64,000 nt of DNA. It comes from Tagaea sp. Its GTDB lineage: Bacteria; Pseudomonadota; Alphaproteobacteria; CACIAM-22H2. The translations under genes and the position numbers were made by a program. The notes under the pieces were generated by a model. That model saw only the letters and a program-made list of their open reading frames with translations, searched no databases and was not told the DNA's origin. The DNA lies in contig JBGAKN010000004.1 in the NCBI GenBank assembly GCA_044224405.1, positions 183,810 through 247,809 of the forward strand. The letters run 5' to 3'. Positions 3,793 to 48,391 of this stretch are shown here, piece after piece; the stretch's first letter is position 1; each line of letters starts with the position of its first letter.

Positions 3793-3821
3793 GGGGGATG
3801 TCCTCCGGTTCGAGGGGGGAA

Positions 3822-5309: not shown

Positions 5310-5318
5310 TTCGCGCTC

Positions 5319-5819: not shown

Positions 5820-5990
5820 CGCTGGAGCGCTCCGCGATATCTATCGGATTGGTCCGTCACGCTTTCGTTTCCTCCGTCGGCCGCTTCGCATCTTCGTGCG
5901 GCGGTCCGGCTTGTCCAAAAACTTGACACTTCCGCCGGGATGGAACAACTACCATCTGGGCCCGGATCCATACCCAGAGGATATACCCAC

Positions 5991-6971: not shown

Positions 6972-6980
6972 AATCCAGGG

Positions 6981-10261: not shown

Positions 10262-10295
10262 GGGCAGGCGTCCGGTCGGGACGGCTCGGCTTGCG

Positions 10296-11324
10296 TCAGC
10301 GCGGCAGCGAGCCGATCTCGGCGTCCCACTTCGCGAGCAGGCGGCGGCGTTCCGAAGCCTGCCCGTACTTCACGAAGTCGTATTCGACGAGCTTCAGCTT
10401 CGAGAGGTCGGGCGCGTTGGGCGGCAGCGGGGCCGCCTTGTTCGACGGCATCTGGAGCTGGCCACCAGCCTCGAAACCGAGGCGCTGGGCTTCGGGCGTC
10501 AACGCCCAGTCGTAGAAGCGGCGCGCCTGCGTCAGGTTGCGCGTGCCCCGCACGATCGACATCGAGCCGATCTCGTAGCCCGTGCCTTCGCACGGCGTCG
10601 CCCAGCCGACGGGGAAGCCGGCATTGGCTTCCGTCACGGCGTCGTGCACGAACGACAGCGACACGGCCGTCTCGCCGCGCGCCACTGCCTTGATCGGTCC
10701 GGTGCCCGAGCGCGCATAGGCGTTCACGTTCTTGTGCATGTCGGCCAGATACGCGAACGCCTTGCCCTCGCCCATCAGTTGCACCAGCGTGGCGATGACG
10801 ACATAGGCCGTACCCGACGAGTTCGGGTTGGCGACCTGGATCTCGCCCTTGTAGGCCGGCTTGATGATGTCGGCCCAGCAGGCGGGCGCCGGGATGTTCT
10901 TCTTGGCGAGCAGCTCCTTGTTGAAGCCGAAGCCGACGGCGCCCGAATAGATGCCGATCGAGCGGCCCTTGGAGATCTCGTACTGGCGCAGCGCCCATGC
11001 CTGCAGGTTGCCCGCACCGGCCGACTTGTATTCGACGGTGAGGTTCTCTTCGGCCGCGATCAGGTGCGGATCGCCCGTGCCGCCGAACCACACGTCGGTG
11101 CGCGGGTTCTGCGCTTCGGCGCGCAGCTGCGCCAGCGCCTCGCCCGAACCGCGCTGCGTCATCGCGACGTTGATGCCGGTCGCCTTCTGGAAATTCGTCG
11201 CGACGGCCTGGCACCATTCGACCTGCACCGAACACGAAAGATTGAGCGTGCCCTGCGCTTGCGCCTGCGGGGCCAGAAGGGCGCCGAGCGAAAAGGCGGT
11301 CAGGACGAGTGCGTTCTTGGTCAT
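10296..11324 (-). CDS. ABC transporter periplasmic substrate-binding protein (Fe3+/thiamine/polyamine family)
   Basis: Real start MTKNALVLTAFSLGALLAPQAQAQ (signal peptide) with a GGAGGAA SD. The 439-aa ORF-track version carries a spurious extension. About 343 aa fits FbpA/AfuA-like SBPs. Confidence 0.7.
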   Translation of the reverse strand: MTKNALVLTAFSLGALLAPQAQAQGTLNLSCSVQVEWCQAVATNFQKATGINVAMTQRGSGEALAQLRAEAQNPRTDVWFGGTGDPHLIAAEENLTVEYKSAGAGNLQAWALRQYEISKGRSIGIYSGAVGFGFNKELLAKKNIPAPACWADIIKPAYKGEIQVANPNSSGTAYVVIATLVQLMGEGKAFAYLADMHKNVNAYARSGTGPIKAVARGETAVSLSFVHDAVTEANAGFPVGWATPCEGTGYEIGSMSIVRGTRNLTQARRFYDWALTPEAQRLGFEAGGQLQMPSNKAAPLPPNAPDLSKLKLVEYDFVKYGQASERRRLLAKWDAEIGSLPR

Positions 11325-11506: not shown

Positions 11507-12166
11507 GTGACCTTATCAAACCCCCGCCCGTGCGCCCTTCTCTTCGACATCGACGGAACGCTGACCGATACCGAGGCCGTCCATTTCGAATCCTGGACAC
11601 GGATCCTGAAGCCACTCGGCATCACGGTGGCGCCCGATTTCTACATGGTGAACTTCGTCGGCCTGACGAGTGACGCCATCGTCCAGCGCAACTTCAGCAG
11701 CATCGATCCCGCGATCGCGCGCGAACTGCCCGACCGCAAGGAAGCGCTATTCCGCACGCTGCTCGACAGCCTCGTGCCCACGCCGGGCCTCGGCGCCCTG
11801 CTGGAACGCGCGCGCGACGCCGGTATCAAGCTCGCCGCCGTGACGAACGCGCCGCGCGCCAATGCCGAGCTGATCCTCGGCAAGCTCGGGCTCGGCAAGA
11901 CCTTCGCCACGATCGTCATCGGTGACGAACTGGCGCGCGGCAAGCCCGATCCGCTTCCCTATCTCACCGCGCTCGAACGGCTGGGCGTGGAAGCGGGCAA
12001 CGCGCGCGTTTACGAGGATTCCGCCGCAGGCGTCACGGCGGGCGTGGCCGCGCGCATCGAGACCGTGGGCATCGACATGCATGCGCCCGCCATCGACGAC
12101 AGCCATCCGCTGCGCCGCATAGGCGCCGCGCGCGTGATCCGCGATTTCCGCAACGAGGCGCTCTGA
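11507..12166 (+). CDS. HAD-superfamily hydrolase (subfamily IA, beta-phosphoglucomutase-like)
   Basis: Motif I LLFDIDGTLTDTE, plus motifs II-IV (VTNAPRANAELIL, K...GKPDP, YEDSAAGV). Confidence 0.75.
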   Translation: MTLSNPRPCALLFDIDGTLTDTEAVHFESWTRILKPLGITVAPDFYMVNFVGLTSDAIVQRNFSSIDPAIARELPDRKEALFRTLLDSLVPTPGLGALLERARDAGIKLAAVTNAPRANAELILGKLGLGKTFATIVIGDELARGKPDPLPYLTALERLGVEAGNARVYEDSAAGVTAGVAARIETVGIDMHAPAIDDSHPLRRIGAARVIRDFRNEAL

Positions 12167-12204
12167 CGGTATATTCCCCGCATCGACACGCGAGGGAGAC
12201 CGTC

Positions 12205-13005
12205 ATCGACATTTCCGTTCCCAACGGCGCCACACGGCTTTTCGTCATCGTCGGCGATCCGATCGCGCAGGTGAAATCGCCGGCCGGCATGACCGCCGGT
12301 TTCGCGGCGCGCGGCCGCAATGCGATCCTGGTGCCCGCGCATGTGACGCCGGGCGATCTGTCCGCGTTCCTCGCCAGTACGCGCCTCGTCCGGAATCTCG
12401 ACGGGCTCATCGTCACCATCCCGCACAAGTTCACCTGCGTGCCGTTCTGCACGAGCCTCAACGAACGTTCGGCGTTTCTGGGTGCCGTCAACATCATCCG
12501 GCGCGAAGGCGAAGGCTGGCACGGCGACATGCTCGATGGCCTTGGCTTCGTCGCGGCGATCCGCGCCAAGGGCGGCGAGCCCAGGGGCGCGCGGGCATTG
12601 CTGGTCGGCGCGGGCGGTGCCGGCTGGGCCATCGCGCTGGCGCTTGTCGATGCGGGCGTGGCTTCGCTCGCGATCCACGATACCGACATCGCGCGCCGCG
12701 ACGCGCTGATCAAGAAACTGCGTACCCGCATGCCGGTCACGGTCGGCTCGGCCGACCCGACCGGTTATGATCTCGTCGCCAACGCGTCATCCGCAGGCAT
12801 GAAGGCGGGCGATCCCCACCCTGTCGATGTCGCGCGCCTGTCGGCGGGCACGTTCGCCGCCTGCGCCATCACCTCGCCGGACCCGGCACCGTGGATCGCG
12901 GCGGCGATCGCGAAAGGCTGCCGGACTTCGAACGGCGTCGACATGTACCGGGCGGCGGAAGCGGCGATGCTCGATTTCCTGCTCGCCGCCGGCGAAGCGG
13001 CTTAA
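12205..13005 (+). CDS. Shikimate/quinate dehydrogenase family protein (divergent AroE paralogue) with unresolved start codon
   Basis: Conserved SDH N-terminus LFVIVGDPIAQVKSPAGMTAGF, TIPHK motif and Rossmann motif LLVGAGGAGWAIALAL. No in-frame ATG/GTG/TTG upstream of the conserved N-terminus. The only canonical start (GTG 12271) would truncate it. A GAGGGAG SD sits 8 nt before ATC 12205. Confidence 0.5.
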   Translation: MDISVPNGATRLFVIVGDPIAQVKSPAGMTAGFAARGRNAILVPAHVTPGDLSAFLASTRLVRNLDGLIVTIPHKFTCVPFCTSLNERSAFLGAVNIIRREGEGWHGDMLDGLGFVAAIRAKGGEPRGARALLVGAGGAGWAIALALVDAGVASLAIHDTDIARRDALIKKLRTRMPVTVGSADPTGYDLVANASSAGMKAGDPHPVDVARLSAGTFAACAITSPDPAPWIAAAIAKGCRTSNGVDMYRAAEAAMLDFLLAAGEAA

Positions 13006-13844
13006 AGCGTCGCCTCGATCGACTGGCGCAATTCGGGCGTGACGTCAGGCAGGATGCCGAACCACGCCTTGAAGGCCGGGCGCGCCTGATGGAGCAGCAT
13101 GCCGAGGCCATCCACCGTGGGATTGCCGCGCTTGCGCGCGGCGGCAAGCAACGGCGTTTCCAGCGGCGTGTAGACGATGTCGGTGACGAGCGCGGTCTTC
13201 GGCAACGCGTCGAGCGAAAGATCGAGCGCGGGCTGCCCGACCATGCCCTGGCTCGTCGTGTTGATCAGCGTGGCCGCGCCTTCGAGCACCTTGTGCCGCT
13301 CGTCCCAGCCGGCGATCTCGATCGGGCCGCCGACCTGCTTGGCCAGCGCCTCGGCGCGCGCGGGCGTGCGGTTGACCAGGACGATGCGCTTGGCCCCCTT
13401 GTCGAGCAGGCCGACCGCGATCGCGCGTGCGCCGCCGCCCGCACCCACGAGAACGACGGTGCCCGCATCGGCGCGCCAGCCGGGCGCACGGTCGATGACG
13501 TTCTCGATAAAGCCCCAGCCGTCGTTGTTGAAGCCGTTCAGCGAACCGTCCGCCCCGACGACGATGCAGTTCGCCGCGCCGATGCGCTTGGCGAGCGGAT
13601 CGAGCGTGTCGACGATCTTCAGCGCCTCGACCTTGTGCGGGATGGTGAGGTTGCAGCCCGAGAAGCCCAGCGCCGGCAACGCACGCAACGCCGCCGCAAG
13701 CCCTTCGATCTTGATGCCGAGCGGCACATAGGTGCCCGCGAGCCCGTGCTTCTGGAGCCAATAGTTATGGAGCTTCGGCGAGCGCGAATGCATCACCGGC
13801 CACCCCATCACACCCGCCAGCAAGAACCTGTCCTGATGCGCCAT
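13002..13844 (-). CDS. aroE: Shikimate dehydrogenase (canonical AroE)
   Basis: MAHQDRFLLAGVMGWPVMHSRSPKLHNYWL...CNLTIPHKVEA...VVLVGAGGGARAIAVGL. 281 aa. Last gene of the Liv-type ABC operon. Overlaps the convergent paralogue by 4 bp. Confidence 0.8.
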   Translation of the reverse strand: MAHQDRFLLAGVMGWPVMHSRSPKLHNYWLQKHGLAGTYVPLGIKIEGLAAALRALPALGFSGCNLTIPHKVEALKIVDTLDPLAKRIGAANCIVVGADGSLNGFNNDGWGFIENVIDRAPGWRADAGTVVLVGAGGGARAIAVGLLDKGAKRIVLVNRTPARAEALAKQVGGPIEIAGWDERHKVLEGAATLINTTSQGMVGQPALDLSLDALPKTALVTDIVYTPLETPLLAAARKRGNPTVDGLGMLLHQARPAFKAWFGILPDVTPELRQSIEATL

Positions 13845-13876
13845 GTCGAAAACTTCCCTCTGTGAAATGCGTCGTG

Positions 13877-14308
13877 TCAGGCGGCGGCGAAGCGCGCCTC
13901 GATGGCGGCGATGCCCGTCTTCGCCAGTTCCTCGTCTTCGGCTTCCGGCAGGCCGCTGATGGCGACGGCGCCGAGGAACTGCCCGTCCTTCTCCACCGGG
14001 AATCCGCCGCCCCAACCGACATAGCGCGGGTCGCCGTAATACGAGATGTCGAAGCCGTGCTCGGGATCACGGATGCGCTTGCCGACCATGCCGCTGGGCC
14101 GGCGCAGGCGCACGGCGGTGTAGGCCTTGTTCGTCGCGACGGCGACGGAGCTGAGTGCGGCACCCGAATAGCGCAGCACGGCCAGCGTCTCGCCGTGGGA
14201 GTCGACCACGGCGATGACGGCCGCCTTCCCACGCTTGTCGAGTTCGCGCGAAATCGCGTCGATCGCCGCGCGGGCGTCGTTGTGGTCGAGGGTGAGTTCG
14301 CTTCGCAT
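13877..14308 (-). CDS. GlcG/HbpS-like (DUF336) haem-binding family protein
   Basis: 143 aa. Pattern AVIAVVDSHGETLAVLRYSGAALSSVAVATNKAYTAV...GGGFPV...GAVAISG is typical of GlcG/PduO-C-like proteins. Confidence 0.6.
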   Translation of the reverse strand: MRSELTLDHNDARAAIDAISRELDKRGKAAVIAVVDSHGETLAVLRYSGAALSSVAVATNKAYTAVRLRRPSGMVGKRIRDPEHGFDISYYGDPRYVGWGGGFPVEKDGQFLGAVAISGLPEAEDEELAKTGIAAIEARFAAA

Positions 14309-14310
14309 GT

Positions 14311-15063
14311 CTATGCCGTTCCCGCGTGCTGGCTGGTACCGCCGAGAAAGAGTTCCCCTACCCGCGGATCGACGAGCAGGGCGGCGGCCGTGTCGGACAT
14401 CCGCGTCTGCCCCTGCTCGAGCACGAGCCCGCGGTCGGAGATCTGGAGGGCGCTGCGCGCGTTCTGTTCGATCAGCAGGATCGTCGTGCCGCGCTTGCGC
14501 AGGTCGAGGAGGATATCGAATGTCTCGCGCACCATCAACGGCGACAGCCCGATCGAAGGCTCGTCGATCAGCAGCAGCTTGGGATCGAGCAGCATGCTGC
14601 GCGCGATCTCCAGCAGCTTCTGCTGGCCGCCGCTGAGCGTGGAGGCCTGCGCCTTCGCCTTCTGGCGCAGGATCGGGAAGCGTTCGAGAGCGACTTCGAT
14701 GCGCGCCTTGATGTCGGTCTCTGGCGGCGCCGCGATCCCGCCAAGCTCTAGATTGTGGAATACGCTGAGCTCGGGAAAGATGTTGCGGCCCTGCGGCACA
14801 TAGCTGATGCCGGCGGCGAGCAGTTGGCGCGGCGGCAGGTTCGTGATGTCGCGTCCCTCGAACGCGATCATGCCGCTGCGCACCTTGAGCAGGCCGAACA
14901 CTGTCTTGAACACGGTCGACTTGCCCGCCCCGTTCGGGCCGATCACGGTCGTGATCTTGCCCCGCTCGATGCCGAACGTGGTGCCGTGCAGGATCGTCAT
15001 CGGGCCATAGCCGGCGACGACGTTGTCCAGCGTCAGGATCGGCGTGGCGCTGTCAGGGGCCAA
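14311..15063 (-). CDS. HAAT-family ABC transporter ATP-binding protein (LivF-like)
   Basis: Walker A GPNGAGKST, signature LSGGQQKLLEIARSM, Walker B LLLIDEPSIGLSP. TTG start. Overlaps the livG-like gene. Confidence 0.85.
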   Translation of the reverse strand: MAPDSATPILTLDNVVAGYGPMTILHGTTFGIERGKITTVIGPNGAGKSTVFKTVFGLLKVRSGMIAFEGRDITNLPPRQLLAAGISYVPQGRNIFPELSVFHNLELGGIAAPPETDIKARIEVALERFPILRQKAKAQASTLSGGQQKLLEIARSMLLDPKLLLIDEPSIGLSPLMVRETFDILLDLRKRGTTILLIEQNARSALQISDRGLVLEQGQTRMSDTAAALLVDPRVGELFLGGTSQHAGTA

Positions 15064-15796
15064 GATACGCCTCGACGACCTTCGGGTTGTTGCGGATGCT
15101 CGCGGGATCGCCTTCTGCGATCACCTTCCCTTCGGCCAGCACCAGCACGCGCGTGCACAGCGACATCACGAAATCCATGTTGTGCTCGATGACCACGAAC
15201 GTCGCGCGCATCTCCTTGTTGATCGCGCGCAGGCGTTCGCGCAGGCCCGCGAGCATCGTGAGGTTGACGCCCCCCGCCGGCTCGTCGAGCAGCACGAGGC
15301 GCGGGCCGCCCATGAACGCCATCGCGGCGTCGAGCAGCTTCTGCTGGCCATAGCTGAGGCGCCCGGCCTTCTCGCTTGCGACGTGGCTGAGGCGAAAGAA
15401 CTCGATCATCCGGTCGGCCGCGGCACCGAGCCCCGCGTCCGGTGGCCCGAACAGGCGCTTCAGCATCGTGCCCTGGTGTTCCTGCCCGGCCGCGATCAGG
15501 TTGTCCTTCACGGTCAGTTCCGGGAACACCTGCAGGAGCTGGAACGTGCGGCTCACGCCCAGCGCGTTGAGATCGCAGGGCCGCATGCCGGTCGTCACCT
15601 TGCCGTCGACCAGCACGGTGCCGGAGGTAGGCTGCAGCTGGCCGAGCACGCAGTTGAACAGCGTGGACTTGCCCGAGCCGTTCGGTCCGATGATGCCGAG
15701 GATCTCGCCCTCCTCGACCGAGAAGGATACGCCTTCGACGGCCGCGATGCCGCCGAACGACTTATGCAGATCGCGGATTTCGAGGACGGCGGCCAT
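15053..15796 (-). CDS. HAAT-family ABC transporter ATP-binding protein (LivG-like)
   Basis: GPNGSGKSTLFN, LSYGQQKLLDAAMAF, LVLLDEPAGGVN. Start overlaps the livM-like stop. Confidence 0.85.
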   Translation of the reverse strand: MAAVLEIRDLHKSFGGIAAVEGVSFSVEEGEILGIIGPNGSGKSTLFNCVLGQLQPTSGTVLVDGKVTTGMRPCDLNALGVSRTFQLLQVFPELTVKDNLIAAGQEHQGTMLKRLFGPPDAGLGAAADRMIEFFRLSHVASEKAGRLSYGQQKLLDAAMAFMGGPRLVLLDEPAGGVNLTMLAGLRERLRAINKEMRATFVVIEHNMDFVMSLCTRVLVLAEGKVIAEGDPASIRNNPKVVEAYLGP

Positions 15797-16761
15797 CAGC
15801 GCGCCACCTTAGCGGCCGTGCGCCGGCGCCACGCCGCACGCAGCTGCTCGACCATGCCGATCAGGCCCTGCGGGCAGAAATTCATCAGCAGCATCACCAG
15901 CGCGGCGTAAAGCAGCAGGTAGTAGCCTTGGGTGAAGCGCAGGAAATCAGGAAGCAGGATCGCGACCATCGCGCCCACCAGCGGCCCCAGCAGATAGCCC
16001 GCGCCGCCGACGATCACCATCAGCAGCAGGCTCAGCGAATAGCCGAGCGAGAACGAGTTGGGTTCGAGGAACTGCACCAGCGGCGCGAACAGCCCGCCCG
16101 CGAAGCCGCCGATCGACGAGCCGATCGCGAAGGCGAGCAACGTGTAGCGGCGCGTGTCGATGCCGAGCGACAGCGCGCGCACCGGGTTCTCGCGCAAGAC
16201 CATGAAGGCGCGCCCCCAGGGCGAGCGGATCATCCACCACATGGCCCCCAGAAACAGCGCAAGCATCGCGAGGCAGAAATAGTAGTAGGCGCCCGCTTTC
16301 GCGAACGAGATGCCGAATAGTACCGGGCGCTGGATGCCGGAAATCCCGTAGACGCCGTTCGTCAGCCACTGCTCGTTGCGCAGCAGCAGATAGACGAGCG
16401 TCGTGAAGGCGAGCGTGACGAAAGCGAGATAATGGTGCTGCACGCGCAAGGCCGGATAGCCGAGCAGCCAGCCGATCGCGAAGCCCATCGCACCCGCCGC
16501 AAGAAAGGCGAGCGGAAACGGCACGCCCGCCTGCATCAGCAGCGTCGTCGTATAGGCGCCGATGCCGACGAACGCGCCTTGCGCCATCGAAACCTGCCCG
16601 GCATAGCCGAGCGTGAGGTTGAGCCCCATCGCCGCGATCGCCGTCACGGCCCACAGGCTGACGAGATAGAGCTGCGAGGGGCGCAGGAACTCCGGCCCCA
16701 GCGCAAGGCCGATGACGATCGCGGCCGTGGCCGCGAGGATGGCCGGAGAAAAACGCGTCAT
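15796..16761 (-). CDS. HAAT-family ABC transporter permease (LivM-like)
   Basis: 321-aa polytopic membrane protein. LNLTLGYAGQVSMAQGAFVGIGAYT is typical of LivM. Confidence 0.8.
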   Translation of the reverse strand: MTRFSPAILAATAAIVIGLALGPEFLRPSQLYLVSLWAVTAIAAMGLNLTLGYAGQVSMAQGAFVGIGAYTTTLLMQAGVPFPLAFLAAGAMGFAIGWLLGYPALRVQHHYLAFVTLAFTTLVYLLLRNEQWLTNGVYGISGIQRPVLFGISFAKAGAYYYFCLAMLALFLGAMWWMIRSPWGRAFMVLRENPVRALSLGIDTRRYTLLAFAIGSSIGGFAGGLFAPLVQFLEPNSFSLGYSLSLLLMVIVGGAGYLLGPLVGAMVAILLPDFLRFTQGYYLLLYAALVMLLMNFCPQGLIGMVEQLRAAWRRRTAAKVAR

Positions 16762-17639
16762 CAGACGGACCGTTCCTCGACGCGCCCGAGCAATCCTTGC
16801 GGACGGAACAGGATGACGGCGACGAGCACGATCAGCGGCACGGCCGCGCGATACTGGGCCGACACGTAGGCGGCCGCGAGATTGTCGAGCACGCCGAGGA
16901 TCAGCCCACCTAGCACGGCGCCGCGCACCTGGTTGAAGCCGCCCACGATGGCCGCGACGAAGGCCGCGAGGCCCAAAGTCTCGCCGTTCGTGAACTTGGC
17001 GAGATAGATGGGCGAGACGAGGAACGAGGCGAGCGCGGTCAGCAGTCCGTTGATGAGGAAGGTGTAGAGGATCATCCGGTCGACATCGACGCCGAGGATG
17101 CGCGCGACGCTGCGGTTCTGCGCGGTCGCCTGCATCGCGCGGCCGGTGAGCGTGGATGTGAGGAACCAGTTGAGCAGTGCCACGGCCCCGATGGCGACGA
17201 AGAAGACCGCGATGCTCTGCGTCGAGACGACGGCGCCGAACGCCTCGATGTCACTGCCATCGACGATCGCGGGAAACTGCTGGGCCTGCGAGCTGTAGAA
17301 ATCCTTCACGGCCTCCTTCATCAGGATGGCCAGCGCCACCGTCGAGATGACGAGCGGCAGCACGCCGTGGCGCAGCATCGGCTCGACGATCAGCCCCTTA
17401 AAGGCGGCCCCGAGGATCAGGGCCGACACGACGAGCCCGACGACGAGCGCGGGCCAGTAGCCGAGGCCGCCGACCTTCATCGCGACCAGCACGAAGAACG
17501 CCGGCACCATCACGAACTCGCCCTGCGCGAAATTGATCGTCTGCGACGTCTGCCAGAGCAGCGCGAAGCCCACGGCGACGAGGGCGTAGATCGCCCCCGT
17601 CGCCAGGCCCGACACGATGAGCTGGATGAACCCAGACAT
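16761..17639 (-). CDS. HAAT-family ABC transporter permease (LivH-like)
   Basis: Real start MSGFIQLIVSGLATGAIYALVAVGFALLWQTSQTINFAQGEF (LivH hallmark) at 17639. The ORF-track 332-aa version carries a spurious extension. Confidence 0.8.
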   Translation of the reverse strand: MSGFIQLIVSGLATGAIYALVAVGFALLWQTSQTINFAQGEFVMVPAFFVLVAMKVGGLGYWPALVVGLVVSALILGAAFKGLIVEPMLRHGVLPLVISTVALAILMKEAVKDFYSSQAQQFPAIVDGSDIEAFGAVVSTQSIAVFFVAIGAVALLNWFLTSTLTGRAMQATAQNRSVARILGVDVDRMILYTFLINGLLTALASFLVSPIYLAKFTNGETLGLAAFVAAIVGGFNQVRGAVLGGLILGVLDNLAAAYVSAQYRAAVPLIVLVAVILFRPQGLLGRVEERSV

Positions 17640-17659
17640 GTCGCGTCCCGATCCCGGCG

Positions 17660-18799
17660 TTACTTGCCGGACTTGGGCAGGATCTCGACGATCTTCTGCT
17701 TGCCGTTGACGACTTCGCCCAGGAAGCTCTGGCGGTCGATGTCGCCGTTCTCGTCCCAAGTGGCTTCCATCAGGATGCCCGGCTCCTGCGCCGGCGTGAT
17801 GGTCGCGCCATGCAGCGCCGCCGCGAAGGCCTTGCTGTCGAACTTGCCCAGTTTTTCAGTGATGTGCTTGATCATGTAGATCGAGATGTAGCCCTTGATG
17901 CCGTTGTGGTCGTTGGCGTAACCGAAGCGCTTCTTGAACTTCTCGCCGAACGCCTGCAAGGCCGGTACCGGCGCGTCGGCCGAGAGGCCGACATGGCCCT
18001 TCACGCCGTTGGCCGCGTCGCCGGCGAGTTCGATGACCTTCTGCCCGAGCAGCGTCGTCTCGCCGATCAGCGGGACGCGGATGCCCTGCTTGCGCGCCTC
18101 GCGCAGGAAGCGAGCGCTTTCCTCTTCGTTCGTGTAGACGAAGATCGCATCGGCATTCGCGTTCTTGACCTTGACGACGTCGGAGGCGAAATCGACCTGG
18201 CCGGATTCAGTCGACACGTCGGCGACGACCGAGATGTTGCGCTTCTTCATCTCGGCGACGAAGAAGTCGCGGCCGCCCTTGCCGAAATCGTTGTTGACCC
18301 ACACGACCGCGACAGACTTCGCCTTCACGCCGTCGCGCATGTAGTTGGCGATCTTCGGCATGCTGTTCTGCTGGCCGAAGGCGGTGCGGAAGACATAGGG
18401 GTTGCCGCGCTGCGTGATCGCGGCCGCCTCGCCGCCCATGATCTGGGCGATTTCGGCCTGCTTGGCGAGTTCCATGCTGGGGAGCACCGAGCCCGAGAAC
18501 ACCGGCCCGAGGATCACGTAGGGCTTGTTGTCGATCATCTTCTGGATCTGGGCCCGCGCGATGCTCGCCTCGCTCTGCGTGTCGACGTGCGGCACGTCGA
18601 GCTTGCGGCCGAGAATGCCGCCCTTGGCGTTCACTTCCTCCACCGCGAGGATGATGCCGTCGCGCCAGTTCGTGCCCGAAACCGCGCCCGCGCCCGAAAG
18701 CTCGGCGAGATCCGGGATGTAGACGGTCTGCTGCGCGCCGGCGGCCATCGGTGCGAGCACCATGGCGGCCGCGATGAATGACTTGGTCAGGTATTTCAT
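17660..18799 (-). CDS. HAAT-family periplasmic substrate-binding protein (LivK/LivJ-like; substrate possibly an aromatic or hydroaromatic acid)
   Basis: Real start MKYLTKSFIAAAMVLAPMAAGAQQ (signal peptide) at 18799 with an SD. Type I periplasmic binding fold (Leu/Ile/Val-BP family). First gene of the seven-gene minus-strand operon ending in aroE. Confidence 0.8.
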   Translation of the reverse strand: MKYLTKSFIAAAMVLAPMAAGAQQTVYIPDLAELSGAGAVSGTNWRDGIILAVEEVNAKGGILGRKLDVPHVDTQSEASIARAQIQKMIDNKPYVILGPVFSGSVLPSMELAKQAEIAQIMGGEAAAITQRGNPYVFRTAFGQQNSMPKIANYMRDGVKAKSVAVVWVNNDFGKGGRDFFVAEMKKRNISVVADVSTESGQVDFASDVVKVKNANADAIFVYTNEEESARFLREARKQGIRVPLIGETTLLGQKVIELAGDAANGVKGHVGLSADAPVPALQAFGEKFKKRFGYANDHNGIKGYISIYMIKHITEKLGKFDSKAFAAALHGATITPAQEPGILMEATWDENGDIDRQSFLGEVVNGKQKIVEILPKSGK

Positions 18800-19112
18800 G
18801 TTTCGCTCCCTTTTCTCCGGACTTTGCCGGATATCGAAATTTTTATGCCGTCTTATCGCGAGAAGAGCAACGGCTAGCACCTCGCGAATACCGGCCCGCA
18901 TTCGGACGACAGGCCGGACGGAACCGCTGCAAGGATCGTGGAAATCCGAAAGTAACGTCCAATACCAAGGTTTCTGACTTCCGTAACGTCAGGTTAAGCA
19001 GCGCGCTTCCGGCCCCATCGCTCCCACGCCGGGCATGCCTGAATCAAATTATTTGTTTGCGCAGTTTGGTGAAGGGCATGCATCAATAGCGGACCACAAG
19101 GCGGCGGGCGAA

Positions 19113-20009
19113 ATGCGCATCGATTTCCTGGGCCTCCAGACGTTCCTCAGCATCGCCGAGCGCGGCAGTTTCCAGCGCGCGGCGGCGCACCTGAACCTGT
19201 CGCAGACGGCGCTCAGCCACCGGATGCGGAAATTCGAGGCCGATCTCGGCGTGAAGCTGCTCGCCCGGACCACGCGGCAGGTGACGCTGTCGCCCGCCGG
19301 GCTCGAGCTGCTGCCCAAGGCGCGCCGGATCCTCGACGAGATCGAGACGTCGTTCGAGGCGCTGCGTCAGGGCGGCCGCCACCGGCAGGAGCGGATCGCC
19401 ATCGGCTGCCTGCCCACGATCGCGAACCACTACCTGCCGCGCATCCTGCGGGAATTCGGCGCCCGCTTCCCCGACATGGCGGTGAAGGTCTACGACAACT
19501 CGGCGACCGAGATCGCCGATCTCGTGCAGAGCGGTGCGGCCGAGTTCGGCATCACGATCGTTTCCGCCAACCGGGTCGATCTAGACATCAAGCCGCTGCT
19601 GAAGGAACCCTTCATCCTCGTCTGCCCGGCGTCGCACGTCTTCGCGCGGCAGAAATCGGTCAACTGGTCGGAACTGGAGGGCATCCCGCTCGTCCGCATC
19701 AGCCCGCAGACGGGCAACCGCGCGCTGATCGACGACGCGCTGGGCAGCCGGCGCGACGCGCTGCGCTGGCGCTACGAGGTCCAGCACGTCACCACTGCCG
19801 TCAGCATGGTGATGGCTGGCCTCGGGCTCACCGTCGTGCCGCGGCTCGCCATCGATACTGCCCGCACGCCCGACGTGGCCGCGATCCCGCTGCGCAATCC
19901 GGGCATCGTGCGCACGCTCGGCATCCTCTCGAAGCGCGGCACCTCGCTGTCGGCACCCGCCGAAATCCTCGCCGGCCTGATCTCGGCCCGCCTCAAGGCC
20001 GAGCGGTGA
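19113..20009 (+). CDS. LysR-family transcriptional regulator, divergent from the Liv-type ABC operon and upstream of gallate-cleavage genes (GalR-like)
   Basis: HTH MRIDFLGLQTFLSIAERGSFQRAAAHLNLSQTALSHRMRKFE. ATG at 19113. Confidence 0.8.
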   Translation: MRIDFLGLQTFLSIAERGSFQRAAAHLNLSQTALSHRMRKFEADLGVKLLARTTRQVTLSPAGLELLPKARRILDEIETSFEALRQGGRHRQERIAIGCLPTIANHYLPRILREFGARFPDMAVKVYDNSATEIADLVQSGAAEFGITIVSANRVDLDIKPLLKEPFILVCPASHVFARQKSVNWSELEGIPLVRISPQTGNRALIDDALGSRRDALRWRYEVQHVTTAVSMVMAGLGLTVVPRLAIDTARTPDVAAIPLRNPGIVRTLGILSKRGTSLSAPAEILAGLISARLKAER

Positions 20010-20098
20010 ATCCGATTCAGCAATCGGGCACATCTCCTCATTTGATCTGAGACCGCCTTCGCCCGAACTTGGCGCAAAGAACGCGGGGGAGACGCAAC

Positions 20099-20935
20099 GT
20101 GACCAACACGATCGTGATCGCAATCGTCGGCTACGGCGAAGTCGGCCGGATCTTCGCGAAGGCGTTTCTGGAACACCCGCATGTGCGCGTGCGCGCCTTC
20201 GACATCCTGTTCGACGCATCGCCCGAGCGTGCCGCTGCCGCCGCGGCCGACGGCGCCACCGCGTGCCGAAGCGCCGCGCATGCGGCCGAGGGCGCCGACC
20301 TCGTCGTCTCGGCCGTGACGGCCGACCGCACGCTCGACGTGGCGCGCGAAGCGGCGGGATATCTGCGCAAAGGGCAGATCTTCTTCGATATCAACTCGGC
20401 CTCGCCGGTCACCAAGCGCACGGCAGCGGAACTGGTCGGCCAGACGGGCGCGGACTATGTCGAGGGTGCGGTGATGGCGCCGGTCCTGCCCGTCGGCATC
20501 CGCGTGCCGATCCTCGCGGGTGGCCCTGCGTGCGAGTGCGCGGCGGAAATGCTGAACGCGCTTGGCATGGACGTCACCCCGGCGACGACCGAACCGGGGC
20601 GCGCGTCGGCGATGAAACTCTGCCGCAGCATCATGATCAAGGGCATCGAGGCACTGATCATCGACTGCGCTGAAGCCGCGAAGGCCTGGGACATCGAGAG
20701 CGAGGTCTATGCGAGCCTTTCCGGCACCTTTCCGTCGATCGACTGGCCAAAGCTCGCCGTGACGATGGCCGGGCGCGTGAGCAAGCACGGCATCCGCCGC
20801 GCGGCGGAAATGCGCGAGGCCGCCCAGATGCTCGGCGACATCGGCCGCGATCCGGGCCTATGCCGCGCGATCGCCGACAGCCACGAGCGCCATGCGCGCG
20901 CGGAAACCGCCAAGGCCGTGCAACCCGTTCATTAA
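20099..20935 (+). CDS. NAD(P)-binding oxidoreductase (6-phosphogluconate-dehydrogenase-like N-domain plus DUF1932-like C-domain)
   Basis: Rossmann motif IAIVGYGEVG. GTG start with a GGGGGAG SD. Sits between the LysR gene and the galD-like gene. Confidence 0.5.
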   Translation: MTNTIVIAIVGYGEVGRIFAKAFLEHPHVRVRAFDILFDASPERAAAAAADGATACRSAAHAAEGADLVVSAVTADRTLDVAREAAGYLRKGQIFFDINSASPVTKRTAAELVGQTGADYVEGAVMAPVLPVGIRVPILAGGPACECAAEMLNALGMDVTPATTEPGRASAMKLCRSIMIKGIEALIIDCAEAAKAWDIESEVYASLSGTFPSIDWPKLAVTMAGRVSKHGIRRAAEMREAAQMLGDIGRDPGLCRAIADSHERHARAETAKAVQPVH

Positions 20936-21011
20936 TGTTCCCATATCAATCATTTGTTTCATGGCGCGCCTTCGCCGATTGTCGCGCCAACGCAAGGAAG
21001 CGGGAGGAAAG

Positions 21012-22100
21012 ATGCAGCAGCGCATACGATGCATGATGATGCGCGGCGGCACGTCGAAGGGGATGTACTTCCTCGCCGATGACCTGCCGCGCGACGTCGC
21101 GGCGCGCGACGAAGTCCTGCTTTCCGTGCTCGGCTCGCCCGATCCGCGCCAGATCGACGGCATCGGCGGCGCGCATCCGCTGACCAGCAAGGTCGCGATC
21201 GTCTCGCGCTCGAAGGACGCCGACGCCGACATCGATTTCCTGTTCTGCCAGGTGCTGGTCGACCGCGCGGCGGTCGACACCACGCCCAACTGCGGAAACA
21301 TCCTCGCCGGCGTCGCCCCCTTCGCGATCGAGCGCGGCCTTTTCCCGGCAAGCGATCCCCTCACCCGCGTGCGCGTGCGCACGATCAATACCGGCACGCT
21401 CGCCGAACTCGTGATCGAGACGCCCGGCGGCGAGGTGAATTACGACGGCGACGCTGCCATCGACGGCGTGCCCGGCACGGCGGCCCCCATCGCGGTCAAT
21501 TTCCTCGATGCCGAGGGCTCGGTCTGCGGCAAATTGCTGCCCACCGGCAACGCGGTCGATATGGTGTGCGGGATCGAGGCGACGCTGATCGACAACGGCA
21601 TGCCGGTCGTCGTGCTCGCGGCCGCCAGCGTCGGGCGCACGGGCTACGAGAGCCGCGAGGATCTCGATGCCGACACCGAACTGAAAGCGCGCCTCGAGGA
21701 GATCCGCCTGGAAGCCGGAAAGCTGATGGGCCTCGGCGACGTGCGCGACAAGGTCATCCCGAAGATGGCGCTTGTCGCGCCGCCCGCGGCCGCCGGCAGC
21801 ATCGCCACGCGCAGTTTCATCCCGCACGCCTGTCACGCCTCGATCGGTGTCTTCGCGGCCGTGTCGGTCGCGACGGCCTGCGTGCTGCCCGGCACGCCCG
21901 CCTCGCGCGCGGCGAAGATGCCGGCCGGGCGCTTCCGTACCGTCAAGGTCGAACACCCGACCGGCGAATTCGACGTGCGCCTCGAAGTGGGCGGCACGGG
22001 CGCGGCACCGAAGGTCGAGCGCGCCGGCCTGTTGCGCACCGCGCGCGCTCTGTTCGACGGGTTCGCCTATTTCCGAACGAAACAAACCAGAGCAGCCTGA
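21012..22100 (+). CDS. galD: PrpF/GalD-family isomerase, putative 4-oxalomesaconate tautomerase
   Basis: MQQRIRCMMMRGGTSKGMYFLADDLP matches the PrpF-family N-terminus (xYMRGGTSKGxFF). GGGAGGAAAG SD. 362 aa. Confidence 0.7.
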   Translation: MQQRIRCMMMRGGTSKGMYFLADDLPRDVAARDEVLLSVLGSPDPRQIDGIGGAHPLTSKVAIVSRSKDADADIDFLFCQVLVDRAAVDTTPNCGNILAGVAPFAIERGLFPASDPLTRVRVRTINTGTLAELVIETPGGEVNYDGDAAIDGVPGTAAPIAVNFLDAEGSVCGKLLPTGNAVDMVCGIEATLIDNGMPVVVLAAASVGRTGYESREDLDADTELKARLEEIRLEAGKLMGLGDVRDKVIPKMALVAPPAAAGSIATRSFIPHACHASIGVFAAVSVATACVLPGTPASRAAKMPAGRFRTVKVEHPTGEFDVRLEVGGTGAAPKVERAGLLRTARALFDGFAYFRTKQTRAA

Positions 22101-22111
22101 GGCCCGCCCCC

Positions 22112-22837
22112 ATGACTTCCCCGCAAAAGACCGCCCTCGTCGTTTCGGCCCATCCCGGCGATTTCGTCTGGCGTGCGGCCGGCGCCATCGCCCTGCATGT
22201 CGCCAAGGGCTATCGCGTGAAGATCGTCTGCCTCGCCTATGGCGAGCGCGGCGAGAGCCAGTGGGCGTGGAAAAAGCCGGGCGTGTCGCTGGCCGACGTG
22301 AAGGCGCAGCGCCATGCGGAAGCCGAACAGGCGGCCAAGATGCTGGGCGCGGAGATCGAGTTCTTCGATGCCGGAGACTATCCGCTGCGCGTCACCGACG
22401 CGATGCTCGACCGGCTGGTCGACATCTATCGCGAGGTGAAGCCGTCCTTCGTGCTCACGCACGCGATGGAGGACCCCTACAACGGCGACCATCCGGAAGC
22501 CTCGCGCTTCGCGCAGGAAGCGCGGGTCATCGCGCAGGCCGCCGGCCACAAGCCCGATCCCGAGCGCAGTTACAGCGCGCCCGCGGTCTTCCTGTTCGAG
22601 CCGCACCAGCCCGAGCAGTGCAATTTCCGCCCGAACGTGATCCTCAACATCGATGCCGCCTGGGAGACCAAGCGCAAGACGTTCGAGATCCTCGCCGCCC
22701 AGAAGCATCTCTGGGAATACTACACGCGCGTCGCGCTCAACCGCGGCATGCAGGGCGGACGCAATTCGGGCAAGCCGATGACGTATGGTGAAGCCTACCA
22801 GCGCGTCTTCCCCGCCGTGGTCGAAGAACTGTACTGA
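22112..22837 (+). CDS. galB: PIG-L/LmbE-family zinc hydrolase-fold protein, putative 4-oxalomesaconate hydratase (GalB-like)
   Basis: LVVSAHPGDFVW (the PIG-L H-P-D-D motif region) plus VLTHAMEDPYNGDHPEA. 241 aa. Lies between the galD-like and galA-like genes, matching the P. putida gal organisation where GalB is a PIG-L family hydratase. Confidence 0.65.
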   Translation: MTSPQKTALVVSAHPGDFVWRAAGAIALHVAKGYRVKIVCLAYGERGESQWAWKKPGVSLADVKAQRHAEAEQAAKMLGAEIEFFDAGDYPLRVTDAMLDRLVDIYREVKPSFVLTHAMEDPYNGDHPEASRFAQEARVIAQAAGHKPDPERSYSAPAVFLFEPHQPEQCNFRPNVILNIDAAWETKRKTFEILAAQKHLWEYYTRVALNRGMQGGRNSGKPMTYGEAYQRVFPAVVEELY

Positions 22838-22853
22838 ACGAAGGAACGCCCCC

Positions 22854-24152
22854 ATGGCCCGCATAATCGGCGCGATCGCCGCCTCGCACACCCCGACGAT
22901 CGGCTTCGCCTTCGACAAGAAGAAGCAGGACGACCCAGTCTGGGCGCCGATCTTCGAATCGTTCGCACCCGTGCGCGCGTGGATCGAGGCGAAGAAGCCC
23001 GCAGCACTGGTCTTCATCTTCAACGACCACGTCACGTCGTTCTTCTTTGACCATTATTCGGCCTTCGCGCTCGGCATCGGCGAGCGCTATCCGGTCGCCG
23101 ACGAAGGCGGCGGCCCGCGCGACCTGCCCCCCGTGGACGGCCACACGCGCCTTGCCCAGCATATCGGCGCCTCGCTGGTCGCCGACGAGTTCGACATGTC
23201 GTTCTTCCAGGACCGGCCGCTCGACCATGGCTGCTTCTCGCCGCTGTGCATGATGATGCCGAGCGCGCCCAAATGGCCCGTCCCCATCGTGCCGCTGCAG
23301 GTCGGCGTGCTGCAGTTCCCGATCCCGTCGGCCAAGCGCTGCTTCAATCTCGGCAAGGCGCTGCGCCGCGCGATCGAGAGCTACCCCGAGGATATCGACG
23401 TCGCGATCGTGGCGACCGGCGGCCTTTCCCACCAGGTGCACGGCGAGCGTGCGGGCTTCAACAACACCCCGTGGGACATGAAGTTCCTCGAGATGATCGA
23501 GAAGGACCCCGAAGCCCTCGCCCGCATGACGCATGCCGAATACGCCACGCTCGGCGGGTTCGAGGGCGCGGAAGTCATCATGTGGCTGATCATGCGCGGC
23601 GCGCTCTCCGCGCGCGTGAACAAGGTCCACCAGACCTACTACCTGCCCTCGATGGCCGGCATCGCGACCGCGATCTACGAGAACGCCGGCGAAGCGCCGA
23701 TGGAAGCCGAGATCGCGCGGCACCGCGAACATGTCGGCCGGCAGATGGAAGGTGCGCAAGCGCTGACCGGCACCTACCCCTTCACGCTCGAGCGCAGCGT
23801 CAAGGGCTACCGGATCAACAAGTTCCTCCACGCCCTCGTCGAGCCAGAGGTGCGCGCGGCATTCCTGAAGGACGCGGAAGCGAGCTTCGCCGCGTCCGAC
23901 CTTTCGGACGAGGAGAAGGACCTGATCCGCCGGCGCGACTGGCGCGGCCTCATCCAGTACGGCGCGATCTTCTTCATGCTGGAGAAGCTGGGCGCCGTGG
24001 TGGGCGTGTCGAACCTGCATATCTACGCTGCGATGCGCGGGCAGACGCTGGAGGAATTCCAGAAGACCCGCAACGCGCCCGGCGCGCTCTATTCGGTCGC
24101 GGGAACCGACAAGGGCAAGACCGACTGGAGTGCGCCGGCAGCCCGCACCTGA
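22854..24152 (+). CDS. galA: Gallate dioxygenase-like fused extradiol dioxygenase (LigB catalytic domain plus LigA-like domain)
   Basis: 432 aa. N-terminus MARIIGAIAASHTPTIGFAFD with His-containing LigB motifs. C-terminal LigA-like extension. AAGGAA SD. Confidence 0.75.
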   Translation: MARIIGAIAASHTPTIGFAFDKKKQDDPVWAPIFESFAPVRAWIEAKKPAALVFIFNDHVTSFFFDHYSAFALGIGERYPVADEGGGPRDLPPVDGHTRLAQHIGASLVADEFDMSFFQDRPLDHGCFSPLCMMMPSAPKWPVPIVPLQVGVLQFPIPSAKRCFNLGKALRRAIESYPEDIDVAIVATGGLSHQVHGERAGFNNTPWDMKFLEMIEKDPEALARMTHAEYATLGGFEGAEVIMWLIMRGALSARVNKVHQTYYLPSMAGIATAIYENAGEAPMEAEIARHREHVGRQMEGAQALTGTYPFTLERSVKGYRINKFLHALVEPEVRAAFLKDAEASFAASDLSDEEKDLIRRRDWRGLIQYGAIFFMLEKLGAVVGVSNLHIYAAMRGQTLEEFQKTRNAPGALYSVAGTDKGKTDWSAPAART

Positions 24153-24153
24153 T

Positions 24154-25155
24154 TCAGGCCGTCGCGACGATCACGGTGCGATCGTCGGTGCGCAGGCGTC
24201 CGAGCGAGCCCTTGGGGGCGGGATAGCGCCCGATCTTCTCGGGGTCCTCGCGCTCGACTTCGGCGAACGCGGCTTCCCACGCCGCCAGCGAGACGGCATC
24301 CGGTATCTTGAAATATCCGTCGGTGAAAAGCTCGATCGAACGCAGGCCCGCGCGCGGCCGGTCCTCGCAGGCGATCAGCCCGTCCGGCACGTCGTAGCCA
24401 TCCAGCACGCCGTAGCCGAACGGCGGCCGATCGACATTGGTGAAACGTACCTGTCCGCGCACGACGCCACCGTCGATGATGGCGGCAAGGTCCGCGGCTT
24501 CGGCCTGCGGCACGGCACGCCGCGCCCGCTCGAGCGCCGACACGCGCAACGCGACACGGTCAGCCTCGCCGATCCGCTCGCCCGCCGCCGGCGGCAGCGC
24601 CCCGAGGCCGTTGAAGACGCAGGCCCGCGCGAGCGTCGCGCGCACGGCCGCATCCTCGGCCGCGAACCGGGCATAGACCGCCTGCCGGATCGACGACGTC
24701 ACGCGATCGACCCATGTCTCGTCGACGAGGACATCCCGCCCGTCGATCCGGATCCCGCTGTCGCCGATGCGGATGAAACGAACGGTATCGCCGACAGCAA
24801 TCGCCGCCGCGAGCGTCGCGCCGAAGCGCCGGCTCCGGTCGTTCCGCGTGGCCTCGGCCAGTCCGTAGCGCGCGTATTCGGCGCGCAGCGCGCCGGAGAG
24901 CGCCGTAACCAATTTCCGGGGCTCGGCCGCATGCTCAGCTGGATCTTCGGCGAATGATTTGAGTGCCGCCACGACCGCCCGGCTGGCGATCCGGCCCGAC
25001 GTGACGCCGTCGAAACGCGAGCCTGTCCGGTCGGTTACGCCGTCGATCACGGCGAGGCACCGGCCCGGCACGACAAGCCACGCATCCTCGTTGGCATCCG
25101 GCCGGTCTGGATCGCGGCTTTGCGAGAACGCTTCGATCTTCATTGCGGACGGCAT
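24154..25155 (-). CDS. PP2C/PPM-family protein phosphatase-like protein
   Basis: Motifs DANEDAW, IDGVTD, IRIGDSGIRIDG and C-terminal TDDRTVIVAT match the PPM signature pattern (motifs 1, 2, 8, 11). Convergent with the galA-like gene. Confidence 0.45.
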   Translation of the reverse strand: MPSAMKIEAFSQSRDPDRPDANEDAWLVVPGRCLAVIDGVTDRTGSRFDGVTSGRIASRAVVAALKSFAEDPAEHAAEPRKLVTALSGALRAEYARYGLAEATRNDRSRRFGATLAAAIAVGDTVRFIRIGDSGIRIDGRDVLVDETWVDRVTSSIRQAVYARFAAEDAAVRATLARACVFNGLGALPPAAGERIGEADRVALRVSALERARRAVPQAEAADLAAIIDGGVVRGQVRFTNVDRPPFGYGVLDGYDVPDGLIACEDRPRAGLRSIELFTDGYFKIPDAVSLAAWEAAFAEVEREDPEKIGRYPAPKGSLGRLRTDDRTVIVATA

Positions 25156-38969: not shown

Positions 38970-39021
38970 TCTTCGTTATTTCCCGACGCCGCGTCCGCCG
39001 GCACCGAAACGTATCGTCGGA

Positions 39022-39789: not shown

Positions 39790-40009
39790 TGCTTCGATTC
39801 TCCTTCGGACAGGCGCGGCCTCGGCCTGCCAGGGCGGGTAAAATAGCCGCAGACACAGCCTGCTGCCAGTCGCCAGAAGCATGCGGCAGCGATGGCGCGG
39901 CGACGGCAAGTATGCGCTTTACGCCCACGGACGCGGTCGTGTAACACTGCCTTTTCCGATAACATCTGCATGGACTTATCCTGCTGGCGCCGGTCGCCGG
40001 GAAATCGAA

Positions 40010-44453: not shown

Positions 44454-44489
44454 TCTGGTTCAACGCCCTTCACGTCGGCAAGGCCATAT

Positions 44490-46030: not shown

Positions 46031-46105
46031 CGAAGCGACCGGCTGCGGCCACCACGCAATTCATCTCGTTTTCCAATTCACTAACGACCGGCCGTACCCG
46101 AGACC

Positions 46106-46119: not shown

Positions 46120-46179
46120 GGCAAGCATGGTATCCTACATGTACATTTTACCTCTGAAGCGAATTCTCAGGGAAATCCA

Positions 46180-47652: not shown

Positions 47653-47662
47653 GGAGCCGGAG

Positions 47663-48388: not shown

Positions 48389-48391
48389 GAG

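Follow-up and report, generated by a model that had tools for sequence, protein, structure and literature searches.

Can a bacterium funnel shikimate into the gallate cleavage pathway? The question is raised by a stretch of 64,000 nucleotides from Tagaea sp. (GenBank assembly GCA_044224405.1, contig JBGAKN010000004.1, positions 183,810–247,809; hereafter the window), in which an operon for an ATP-binding cassette (ABC) importer and an AroE-class shikimate dehydrogenase (SDH) lies back to back with genes for the cleavage of gallate. Shikimate and quinate are abundant plant-derived carbon sources. To our knowledge, their bacterial catabolism is thought to run only through dehydroshikimate dehydratase and protocatechuate. 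A sequence-only reading had suggested uptake of shikimate or quinate, SDH-dependent conversion to gallate and ring cleavage. Tentatively, and with somewhat less than even confidence, we propose that the locus imports shikimate, that the AroE-like enzyme oxidizes it and that the gallate meta-cleavage pathway is thereby fed, the formation of gallate being the conjectural step.

The importer and dehydrogenase arm

The region is best explained as a divergon centered on a GalR-like LysR regulator, with an importer/SDH arm on one side and a gal arm on the other. The window has a G+C content of about 65%, so open reading frames (ORFs) were filtered by third-position G+C. Genes were identified by Pfam, NCBIfam and PDB sequence searches, and their starts were refined with the aid of ribosome-binding sites and the lengths of orthologues. 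On the minus strand, seven genes in the order SBP-LivH-LivM-LivG-LivF-GlcG/HbpS-like-AroE (SBP, solute-binding protein) form one unit, with overlaps or gaps of at most 38 nt. A gene for an SDH-family paralogue converges on aroE and the two stop codons overlap by 4 nt. This part of the sequence-only reading is reproduced gene by gene. The reading had also placed a LysR gene divergently from the SBP gene and at the head of galD, galB and galA. These genes are present as well, but a gene for a DUF1932 oxidoreductase, which had been overlooked, intervenes (Table 1).

The component set of a Liv/HAAT importer is complete, with a Peripla_BP_6 SBP, two BPD_transp_2 permeases and two ATPases. The SBP reaches 119.5 bits on the LivJ subfamily model NF011933 (cutoff 477), and the NCBIfam cutoff for UrtA is also far above its score. 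Most of the positions aligned to Tyr18, Thr102, Tyr150, Tyr202 and Glu226 of LivJ, presumably the residues that bind the amino acid there, are altered (alignment at about 25% identity).

A scan with the SBP, using one genome per species, returned 47 loci (designated by L numbers), on which a gene panel was mapped by tblastn. The closest loci (89–92% identity over the best segment, 85% for L025) belong to Tagaea and other Rhodospirillales assemblies. SBP, permeases and ATPases are kept at 54–82% identity in Pseudolabrys, Prosthecomicrobium, other Alphaproteobacteria and some Burkholderiales bins. An SDH-family gene belongs to the operon or adjoins it in at least 32 of about 45 SBP loci, the remainder being mostly truncated contigs. 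The GlcG/HbpS-like gene adjoins the SDH gene in L048, L051, L053–L055 and L141. Downstream in 19 SBP loci lies a gene for a QuiC1-type dehydroshikimate dehydratase (AP_endonuc_2 and HPPD-like domains, ~630 aa).

The operon of L051 (GCA_016849885.1) has the order LysR, SBP, two permeases, HbpS-like, SDH, short-chain dehydrogenase/reductase (SDR), two ATPases, GFO-type oxidoreductase, QuiC1, PcaH, PcaG and would take a hydroaromatic acid all the way to ring cleavage. It shares with the window the SBP (79% identity), the permeases and ATPases, the GlcG-like protein (69%) and the AroE-like SDH (61%), but it routes the product to QuiC1 and protocatechuate 3,4-dioxygenase, whereas the window has a gallate cleavage operon and a different LysR. 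Because this orthologous operon runs to QuiC1 and PcaHG, with AroE and the GlcG-like protein in common, the comparative context points to a unit that takes up and oxidizes shikimate, quinate or a closely related compound rather than to a branched-chain amino-acid system. Most likely the imported ligand is the SDH substrate, since the SBP orthologues sit with SDH-family genes or QuiC1; it would be shikimate, quinate or a close hydroaromatic acid. Eleven SBP positions aligned to the LivJ pocket are invariant between gal-linked and QuiC1-linked orthologues, including the 58%-identical L066 group. Thus, the ligand is probably the same in both settings, which counts against a retargeting of the importer to gallate.

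Outside the Tagaea clade, an SDR gene directly follows the SDH gene in L048, L051 and L141; the window has none. This SDR could perform a second oxidation step or act as a quinate dehydrogenase. In Rhizobium acaciae (L038) genes for SBP, AroE-like, RifI-like and QuiC1 proteins are joined to those for a VOC-type extradiol dioxygenase, an RraA-like aldolase, PrpF, Amidohydro_2 and DUF1932 proteins. On account of this locus and the GalA-linked loci described below, coupling of the importer/SDH module to a meta-cleavage lower pathway appears as a recurring theme.

The AroE of the window had been called canonical. It passes the equivalog model for the family and shows the hallmarks HSRSP (SxS), PHK, the Asp of NNDG (Lys/Asp dyad) and VNRTPAR (NADP-type NRT..R). 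It departs from the canonical pattern in the residue preceding the catalytic Asp, where the conserved Thr (E. coli Thr101, AtThr422) is Asn ('NNDG' instead of the usual 'NTDG'). The enzyme shares 61% identity with the SDH in the QuiC1-PcaHG operon of L051 and 54% with the GalA-linked SDH of L066. 'NNDG' is found in the whole SBP-linked AroE orthogroup (L048, L051, L053, L054, L066, L089 and L036), and Thr is present in L038 and L023. The Thr after the conserved Asn is changed to Cys in the window, L048, L051, L053, L054 and L036 and retained in L066 and L089.

The convergent paralogue, described earlier as AroE/YdiB-like, is of the RifI class instead. It is 24% identical to the window AroE and scores under all AroE/YdiB cutoffs of NCBIfam. 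Its best PDB match (4K28) exceeds the next one (83.7 bits) clearly enough to place it closer to RifI than to AroE, YdiB, SdhL or Ael1; the class is assigned from this ranking alone, because no curated hidden Markov model exists for it. Upstream of the conserved N-terminal strand (12163–12271) there is no in-frame ATG, GTG or TTG. The conserved sequence starts after a GGGAGA motif at an ATC codon (12205), identical in L002, which is probably a non-canonical start codon. RifI-like genes adjoin QuiC1 or GalA in other loci. The RifI protein of Pseudomonas putida (PP_2608, 4K28) is of unknown function and is encoded among hydroaromatic and aromatic catabolic genes (bioRxiv 10.1101/2025.08.13.670189). 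Its neighbors there are FAD oxidoreductases, NIPSNAP and a transporter of the major facilitator superfamily (MFS), whereas in the window a gene for a HAD-family hydrolase (11507–12166) lies directly upstream on the same strand. The latter pair is kept in L002.

The gallate arm and its recurrence beside the importer

GalA consists of fused LigB and LigA-like domains (PF02900, 215 bits; PF07746, 112 bits). The model for the fused protocatechuate 4,5-dioxygenase gives 303.9 bits, with a cutoff of 837. Over its full length GalA is 59% identical to the gallate dioxygenase DesB of Sphingobium sp. SYK-6 (3WKU, 566 bits); the match to LigB has 265 bits. In DesB, His124 and His192 act as catalytic acid and base, the gallate OH5 is bound by Glu377', which forces protocatechuate into a non-productive pose, and Thr13, Thr267, Tyr391' and Tyr412' touch the substrate carboxylate; the position of Glu377' is occupied by Phe in LigAB (PMC3962378). 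The window GalA retains His12, Thr13, His124, His192, Glu377', Asn387', Tyr391' and Tyr412'; of these, Thr13, His124, His192, Glu377', Tyr391' and Tyr412' are conserved in four clade members as well. One carboxylate contact, Thr267, is Ala throughout the clade, the contacts Thr13, Tyr391' and Tyr412' being kept. Because the specificity residues of DesB are retained, Thr267 excepted, gallate is the probable substrate, as the sequence-only reading had assumed. The enzyme is predicted to be a gallate-specific DesB-type dioxygenase and is not expected to cleave protocatechuate. A disguised protocatechuate 4,5-dioxygenase was considered and rejected; Glu377' and its companions are kept in all clade members, including those beside QuiC1. 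DesB serves syringate and lignin catabolism and is not a neighbor of shikimate genes.

The function of GalB is presumed from its family and context. Orthologues with 78–80% identity are found in GalD/GalB/GalC clusters. The gal cluster of P. putida KT2440, attributed to Nogales et al., reportedly consists of galR, galT, galP, galA, galB, galC and galD. It has in common with the window a LysR regulator, a fused LigB-LigA gallate dioxygenase, a PIG-L-type hydratase and a PrpF-type tautomerase. The window differs in having no galT, galP or galC, in the additional DUF1932 gene at the first position and in a regulator that is divergent from an ABC importer/SDH operon.

Throughout the Tagaea clade the GalR-like LysR gene is divergent from the SBP gene, and the control region is common to both arms; importer/SDH and gal genes may be co-regulated. 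A T-N11-A dyad, TAACGTCAGGTTA (TAAC-N5-GTTA), is located at 18984–18996 and kept in three of the four aligned genomes (window, L003, L053 and L054). An AT-rich palindrome at about 19045–19060, CAAATAATTTG in minus-strand reading, is kept in all four. In a scan for consensus promoters and terminators no signal exceeded the level of shuffled sequence. The LysR of Pseudolabrys-type operons is about 21% identical to that of the window, is encoded in the same direction as the SBP gene and was not seen in the Tagaea clade.

The DUF1932 gene is the first structural gene after LysR. Orthologues with 57–66% identity are widespread, and the gene recurs beside GalA in L073, L089 and L127. Relatives with known structures stem from structural genomics only (4EZB, 3QSG and 1I36), and no relevant paper was found under the DUF1932 name. 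In Phreatobacter stygius and bacterium YEK0313 (the L138/L139 pair) a cluster encodes, in this order, LysR (65–68% identity), DUF1932 (60–63%), an Amidohydro_2 protein that resembles LigI or sulfomuconolactone hydrolase and whose gene overlaps that of DUF1932, and TctC. Genes for GalD (73%), GalB (78–80%) and GalC converge on it. The enzyme most likely belongs to the GalR/lower-pathway module, since across Alphaproteobacteria it travels with LysR and GalD/B/C, even where GalA and SDH are missing; it may act as a LigC analogue in L138 and L139, the two loci in which its gene overlaps the LigI-like one. As a candidate for a dedicated dehydroshikimate-to-gallate dehydrogenase it is weakened by this association and by its absence from L054. 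The window also contains genes of a tripartite tricarboxylate transporter (TctC/TctA/TctB, 2836–6971) and, divergent from them, a LysR gene; about 13 kb separate this set from the gal genes. Since TctC belongs to the DUF1932/lactonase cluster of Phreatobacter and YEK0313, the set could conceivably be connected with tricarboxylate intermediates.

The divergent importer/gal arrangement is kept in six Tagaea/Rhodospirillales assemblies, among which the content of the gal operon varies. The order LysR-DUF1932-GalD-GalB-GalA is present in the window, L002 and L055, and LysR-GalD-GalB-GalC-GalA without DUF1932 in L054 and, judged by tblastn spacing only, in L003. L053 and L056 have LysR-DUF1932-GalD-GalB-GalC-GalA-QuiC1. 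Since these assemblies are closely related, conservation inside the clade is weak evidence. A gene for an SBP_bac_5 protein (peptide/opine-type) is inserted between the LysR and SBP genes of L055 (8319–9872), and L002 has a gap of about 1.8 kb at the matching place (about 8210–10000).

Metagenomes extend the comparison beyond the clade: a scan with the GalA alignment gave 80 loci at 68–80% identity, the flanking DNA of which (0.52 Mb) was probed by tblastn. Four non-redundant SDH-family genes were found there and no QuiC1. Genomes carry few SDH-family genes each, so that four per half megabase are, as a rough estimate, an order of magnitude above chance. In L066 and L070, which share 88% DNA identity, an SBP (58%)-AroE (54%)-lactonase-like Amidohydro_2 set converges on GalA. 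L089 contains GalA, a LigJ-type hydratase and GalC, with LysR divergent from AroE (52%) and DUF1932 (42%) alongside. This locus is the most telling one, combining GalA, the AroE orthogroup and DUF1932 in another order and with a non-homologous hydratase. A RifI-like gene lies directly upstream of GalA in L123, and L110 has GalA, LigJ and GalC together with an SBP (57%). Besides the Tagaea clade, at least two further metagenomic lineages, in which the gene orders differ, thus show GalA linked to the SBP/AroE family. In L066, a lineage unrelated to the window, GalA ends an operon (4171–11302) that opens with Meth_synt_2 (MetE-like) and a second Liv-type ABC system (SBP 24% identical), which may serve the uptake and demethylation of methylated gallates.

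A possible route from shikimate to gallate and its rivals

In the proposed route, shikimate would be imported by the ABC system and oxidized to 3-dehydroshikimate by the AroE-like enzyme. A second dehydrogenation at C5 would yield 3,5-didehydroshikimate, which would aromatize to gallate. Most likely this step would also fall to the AroE-like enzyme, with the RifI-like paralogue and the DUF1932 enzyme as alternatives; no sequence signature discriminates between these three candidates for gallate formation. GalA would open the ring to 4-oxalomesaconate, GalD and GalB would convert the latter into 4-carboxy-4-hydroxy-2-oxoadipate (CHA) and an aldolase encoded elsewhere would complete the pathway. 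That some Alphaproteobacteria and other soil bacteria degrade shikimate in this manner, namely with a HAAT importer, a double NADP+-dependent oxidation by an AroE-like enzyme and DesB/GalA cleavage in place of a dehydroshikimate dehydratase, is a bolder proposal, and we hold it with slightly more reserve.

The importer is the only transporter inside the divergon and is, by its context, probably of the hydroaromatic type; neither the gal operon nor the window holds genes for a gallate transporter, a tannase or an esterase. As the sequence-only reading had stated, dehydroshikimate dehydratase and protocatechuate dioxygenase are not visible: Pfam and tblastn searches of the 64 kb gave no dehydroshikimate dehydratase, dehydroquinase, PcaHG or LigAB, and no match to AP_endonuc_2, DHquinase or QuiC1. 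On the complete Tagaea chromosomes (4.45 and 4.09 Mb) a QuiC1 orthologue was not found among 120 matches at ≥71% identity; QuiC1 is 77% identical even across orders.

The chemistry has precedents, as had been claimed. Plant enzymes combining dehydroquinate dehydratase (DQD) and SDH oxidize dehydroshikimate to gallate with NADP+, and gallate also arises spontaneously from dehydroshikimate at high pH (PMC7752791). The same reaction is reported for E. coli AroE (PMC3057006). AtThr422 is one of three positions substituted in the gallate-forming plant enzymes (PMC7752791). EcDQD/SDH2 and 3, VvSDH3 and 4, JrSkDH and E. coli AroE (PMC7752791, PMC4892741, PMC3057006) have in common with the window AroE the NADP+-type fold and the Lys/Asp dyad; the substitution at the AtThr422 position is shared with the plant enzymes. 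Unlike the window AroE, the plant enzymes serve biosynthesis and carry a fused dehydroquinase, and the substituting residue differs, being Val in EcDQD/SDH2 and Asn in the window. A bacterial shikimate-to-gallate catabolic route or a Liv-type shikimate importer is not described in the literature searched, coverage of which is incomplete, especially for subscription journals; this accords with the earlier remark that the route is not well documented in bacteria. In the qui cluster of Acinetobacter, the qsu cluster of Corynebacterium and the QuiC1 cluster of P. putida, catabolism of an imported hydroaromatic acid likewise begins with an SDH-family enzyme. In contrast to these, the window has no dehydroquinase or dehydroshikimate dehydratase, an ABC importer instead of an MFS transporter or porin, and an NADP-type SDH of the AroE class instead of the NAD-type YdiB/QsuD or the QuiA dependent on pyrroloquinoline quinone.

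Several observations weigh against this route. In the classical shikimate dehydrogenases characterized so far, gallate formation is a minor side activity. The Thr-to-Asn change is also found in the QuiC1-PcaHG-linked AroE orthologue and is therefore not a mark of a gallate-forming enzyme. QuiC1 closes the gal operon of L053 (2093–3988) and L056 (6295–8190), directly after a gallate-type GalA, which suggests conversion of dehydroshikimate to protocatechuate inside the same regulon. Prosthecomicrobium hirschii and sp. N25 have the core module on its own, so the downstream genes may be unlinked. The DUF1932 clusters of Phreatobacter and YEK0313 contain neither GalA nor SDH genes. The gal set itself is incomplete, as galC, the gene for the RraA-like CHA aldolase, is absent from the 64 kb. 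In sister assemblies it lies between galB and galA (L053, 5356–6066; L054, 6255–6953; L056, 4225–4926), and where it is missing (window, 22837–22854; L002; L055) these two genes are just 16 nt apart. The pathway here would stop at CHA unless the aldolase is encoded elsewhere. Likewise, a dehydratase may be encoded elsewhere in this genome, the negative searches covering the 64-kb window. Of the shikimate/quinate-to-gallate conversion in the sequence-only reading, the hydroaromatic context and the recurrent pairing with GalA hold up, and QuiC1 in sister gal operons and the standalone core module speak against it.

The main rival reading, held with only slightly less confidence than the proposed route, is that two separate modules adjoin each other, perhaps under common regulation. 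Shikimate or quinate would then be imported, oxidized and passed on to protocatechuate, the dehydratase gene lying in another part of the genome (or within the operon, the case of the sister assemblies), and the gal genes would take exogenous gallate. Plant galloylquinate and galloylshikimate tannins release gallate together with the hydroaromatic acid, and the pairing of the arms could mirror such co-occurring substrates. QuiC1 is the usual partner of the SBP/SDH module, as in the 19 loci mentioned, and even lies inside the gal operon of L053 and L056. Moreover, the core module is found without downstream genes nearby, and LysR-DUF1932-GalD/B/C forms a self-contained lower-pathway module in other genomes. 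Against this reading, genes for a gallate transporter, a tannase or an esterase are lacking in gal operon and window. The QuiC1 orthologue was not seen on the Tagaea chromosomes (matches at ≥71% identity), and the AroE-GalA pairing recurs in lineages without QuiC1.

The remaining alternatives concern the importer and its dehydrogenase. The ABC system might import gallate or a related aromatic acid, with aroE a passenger or unrelated. This would fit a gal operon without another transporter, and among the weaker PDB matches are Peripla_BP_6 proteins (4EY3, 4EVQ) that presumably include aromatic-acid binders. It is nonetheless improbable: in at least 32 loci from different orders the SBP family is accompanied by the SDH gene, and the pocket-aligned residues are identical to those of SBPs from QuiC1 operons, where gallate makes no sense. 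Still less credible is an anabolic salvage of quinate, dehydroshikimate or shikimate, in which an NADP(H)-type AroE feeds aromatic amino-acid synthesis and the gal genes are neighbors by chance. In its favor, biosynthetic AroE enzymes that use NADPH typically carry the NRT..R motif (PMC7752791), and the window enzyme passes the AroE equivalog model. However, QuiC1-PcaHG catabolic operons contain orthologues, linkage with ring-cleavage genes is seen repeatedly and a catabolic LysR uses the same control region. An ordinary branched-chain amino-acid importer next to an unrelated housekeeping aroE is what the Pfam and NCBIfam family names and the source annotations of the homologues ('branched-chain amino acid') would suggest. 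Given about 119 bits against a LivJ cutoff of 477, the alteration of most LivJ ligand-binding positions and a conserved genomic context of SDH and QuiC1, it is very improbable.

Gene map, surroundings and significance

Table 1. Genes and control region of the divergent locus (positions in the window)
Feature	Position	Strand	Evidence
RifI-class SDH-family paralogue	12205–13005	+	best PDB match 4K28, 127.5 bits
AroE-class shikimate dehydrogenase, 280 aa, last operon gene	13002–13844	-	NF001312, 359.7 bits (cutoff 295)
GlcG/HbpS-like (DUF336) protein, role unassigned	13877–14308	-	PF03928, 110.7 bits
LivF-like ATPase	14311–15063	-	PF00005 and PF12399 (ATPase pair)
LivG-like ATPase	15053–15796	-	PF00005 and PF12399 (ATPase pair)
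LivM-like permease, BPD_transp_2	15796–16761	-	PF02653, 150.2 bits
LivH-like permease, BPD_transp_2	16761–17639	-	PF02653, 119.9 bits
LivK-type SBP, Peripla_BP_6, Liv/HAAT type, 379 aa, signal peptide	17660–18799	-	PF13458, 189 bits
Divergent control region, 313 bp, SBP operon/LysR gene	18800–19112	.	
LysR-type regulator, GalR-like, 298 aa	19113–20009	+	PF00126 and PF03466
NAD(P)-dependent oxidoreductase, NAD_binding_2 + DUF1932, 278 aa	20099–20935	+	Pfam
GalD, 4-oxalomesaconate tautomerase, PrpF family	21012–22100	+	NF033377, 534 bits (cutoff 440); PF04303, 381.7 bits
GalB-like 4-oxalomesaconate hydratase (putative), PIG-L family, 241 aa	22112–22837	+	PF02585, 84.9 bits
GalA/DesB-type gallate dioxygenase (predicted), fused LigB + LigA domains, 432 aa	22854–24152	+	NF009904, 772.5 bits (cutoff 412)

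A gene for a PP2C-like phosphatase (24154–25155) is convergent with galA, the stops lying 1 nt apart; L002 keeps it, the other clade members do not. Five kilobases from galA, at 29241–32197, the window encodes a large protein of 632 aa with a PIG-L domain, a second PIG-L protein in the vicinity of GalB, alongside a ROK/MarR regulator. In L054 (2019–4948) this pair directly adjoins galA. In the region 39000–54000, where G+C is lower (0.61–0.65), cobalamin genes (CbiC, precorrin methylases, CbiG-like) are accompanied by a cbb3 oxidase cluster (ccoNOP, fixGHI); no cobalamin riboswitch reached the Rfam threshold there, and Rfam and tRNA scans found nothing. Other transporters and regulators make up the remaining genes, together with the cobalamin and cbb3 oxidase genes. 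The ORFs 34878–35225, 40415–41161 and 61132–62967 have a strong third-position G+C signal and no Pfam match; the first of these has an unusually low first-position G+C (0.43).

If the proposed route is true, it would be a third bacterial fate of hydroaromatic acids and a new funnel into the 4-oxalomesaconate pathway. It would also give the gallate-forming SDH reaction, known mainly from plant tannin biosynthesis and as a side activity in E. coli, its first catabolic role, and it would provide enzymes for making gallate from sugars. Furthermore, a large SBP family annotated as 'branched-chain amino acid' binding, apparently wrongly, would gain a ligand class (7999 scored candidates at E <= 1e-30, the SDH context having been observed for orthologues of at least 54% identity). 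Should the route prove wrong, the conserved SBP-GlcG-SDH module and the DUF1932 oxidoreductase would still be well-defined subjects for the assignment of function.

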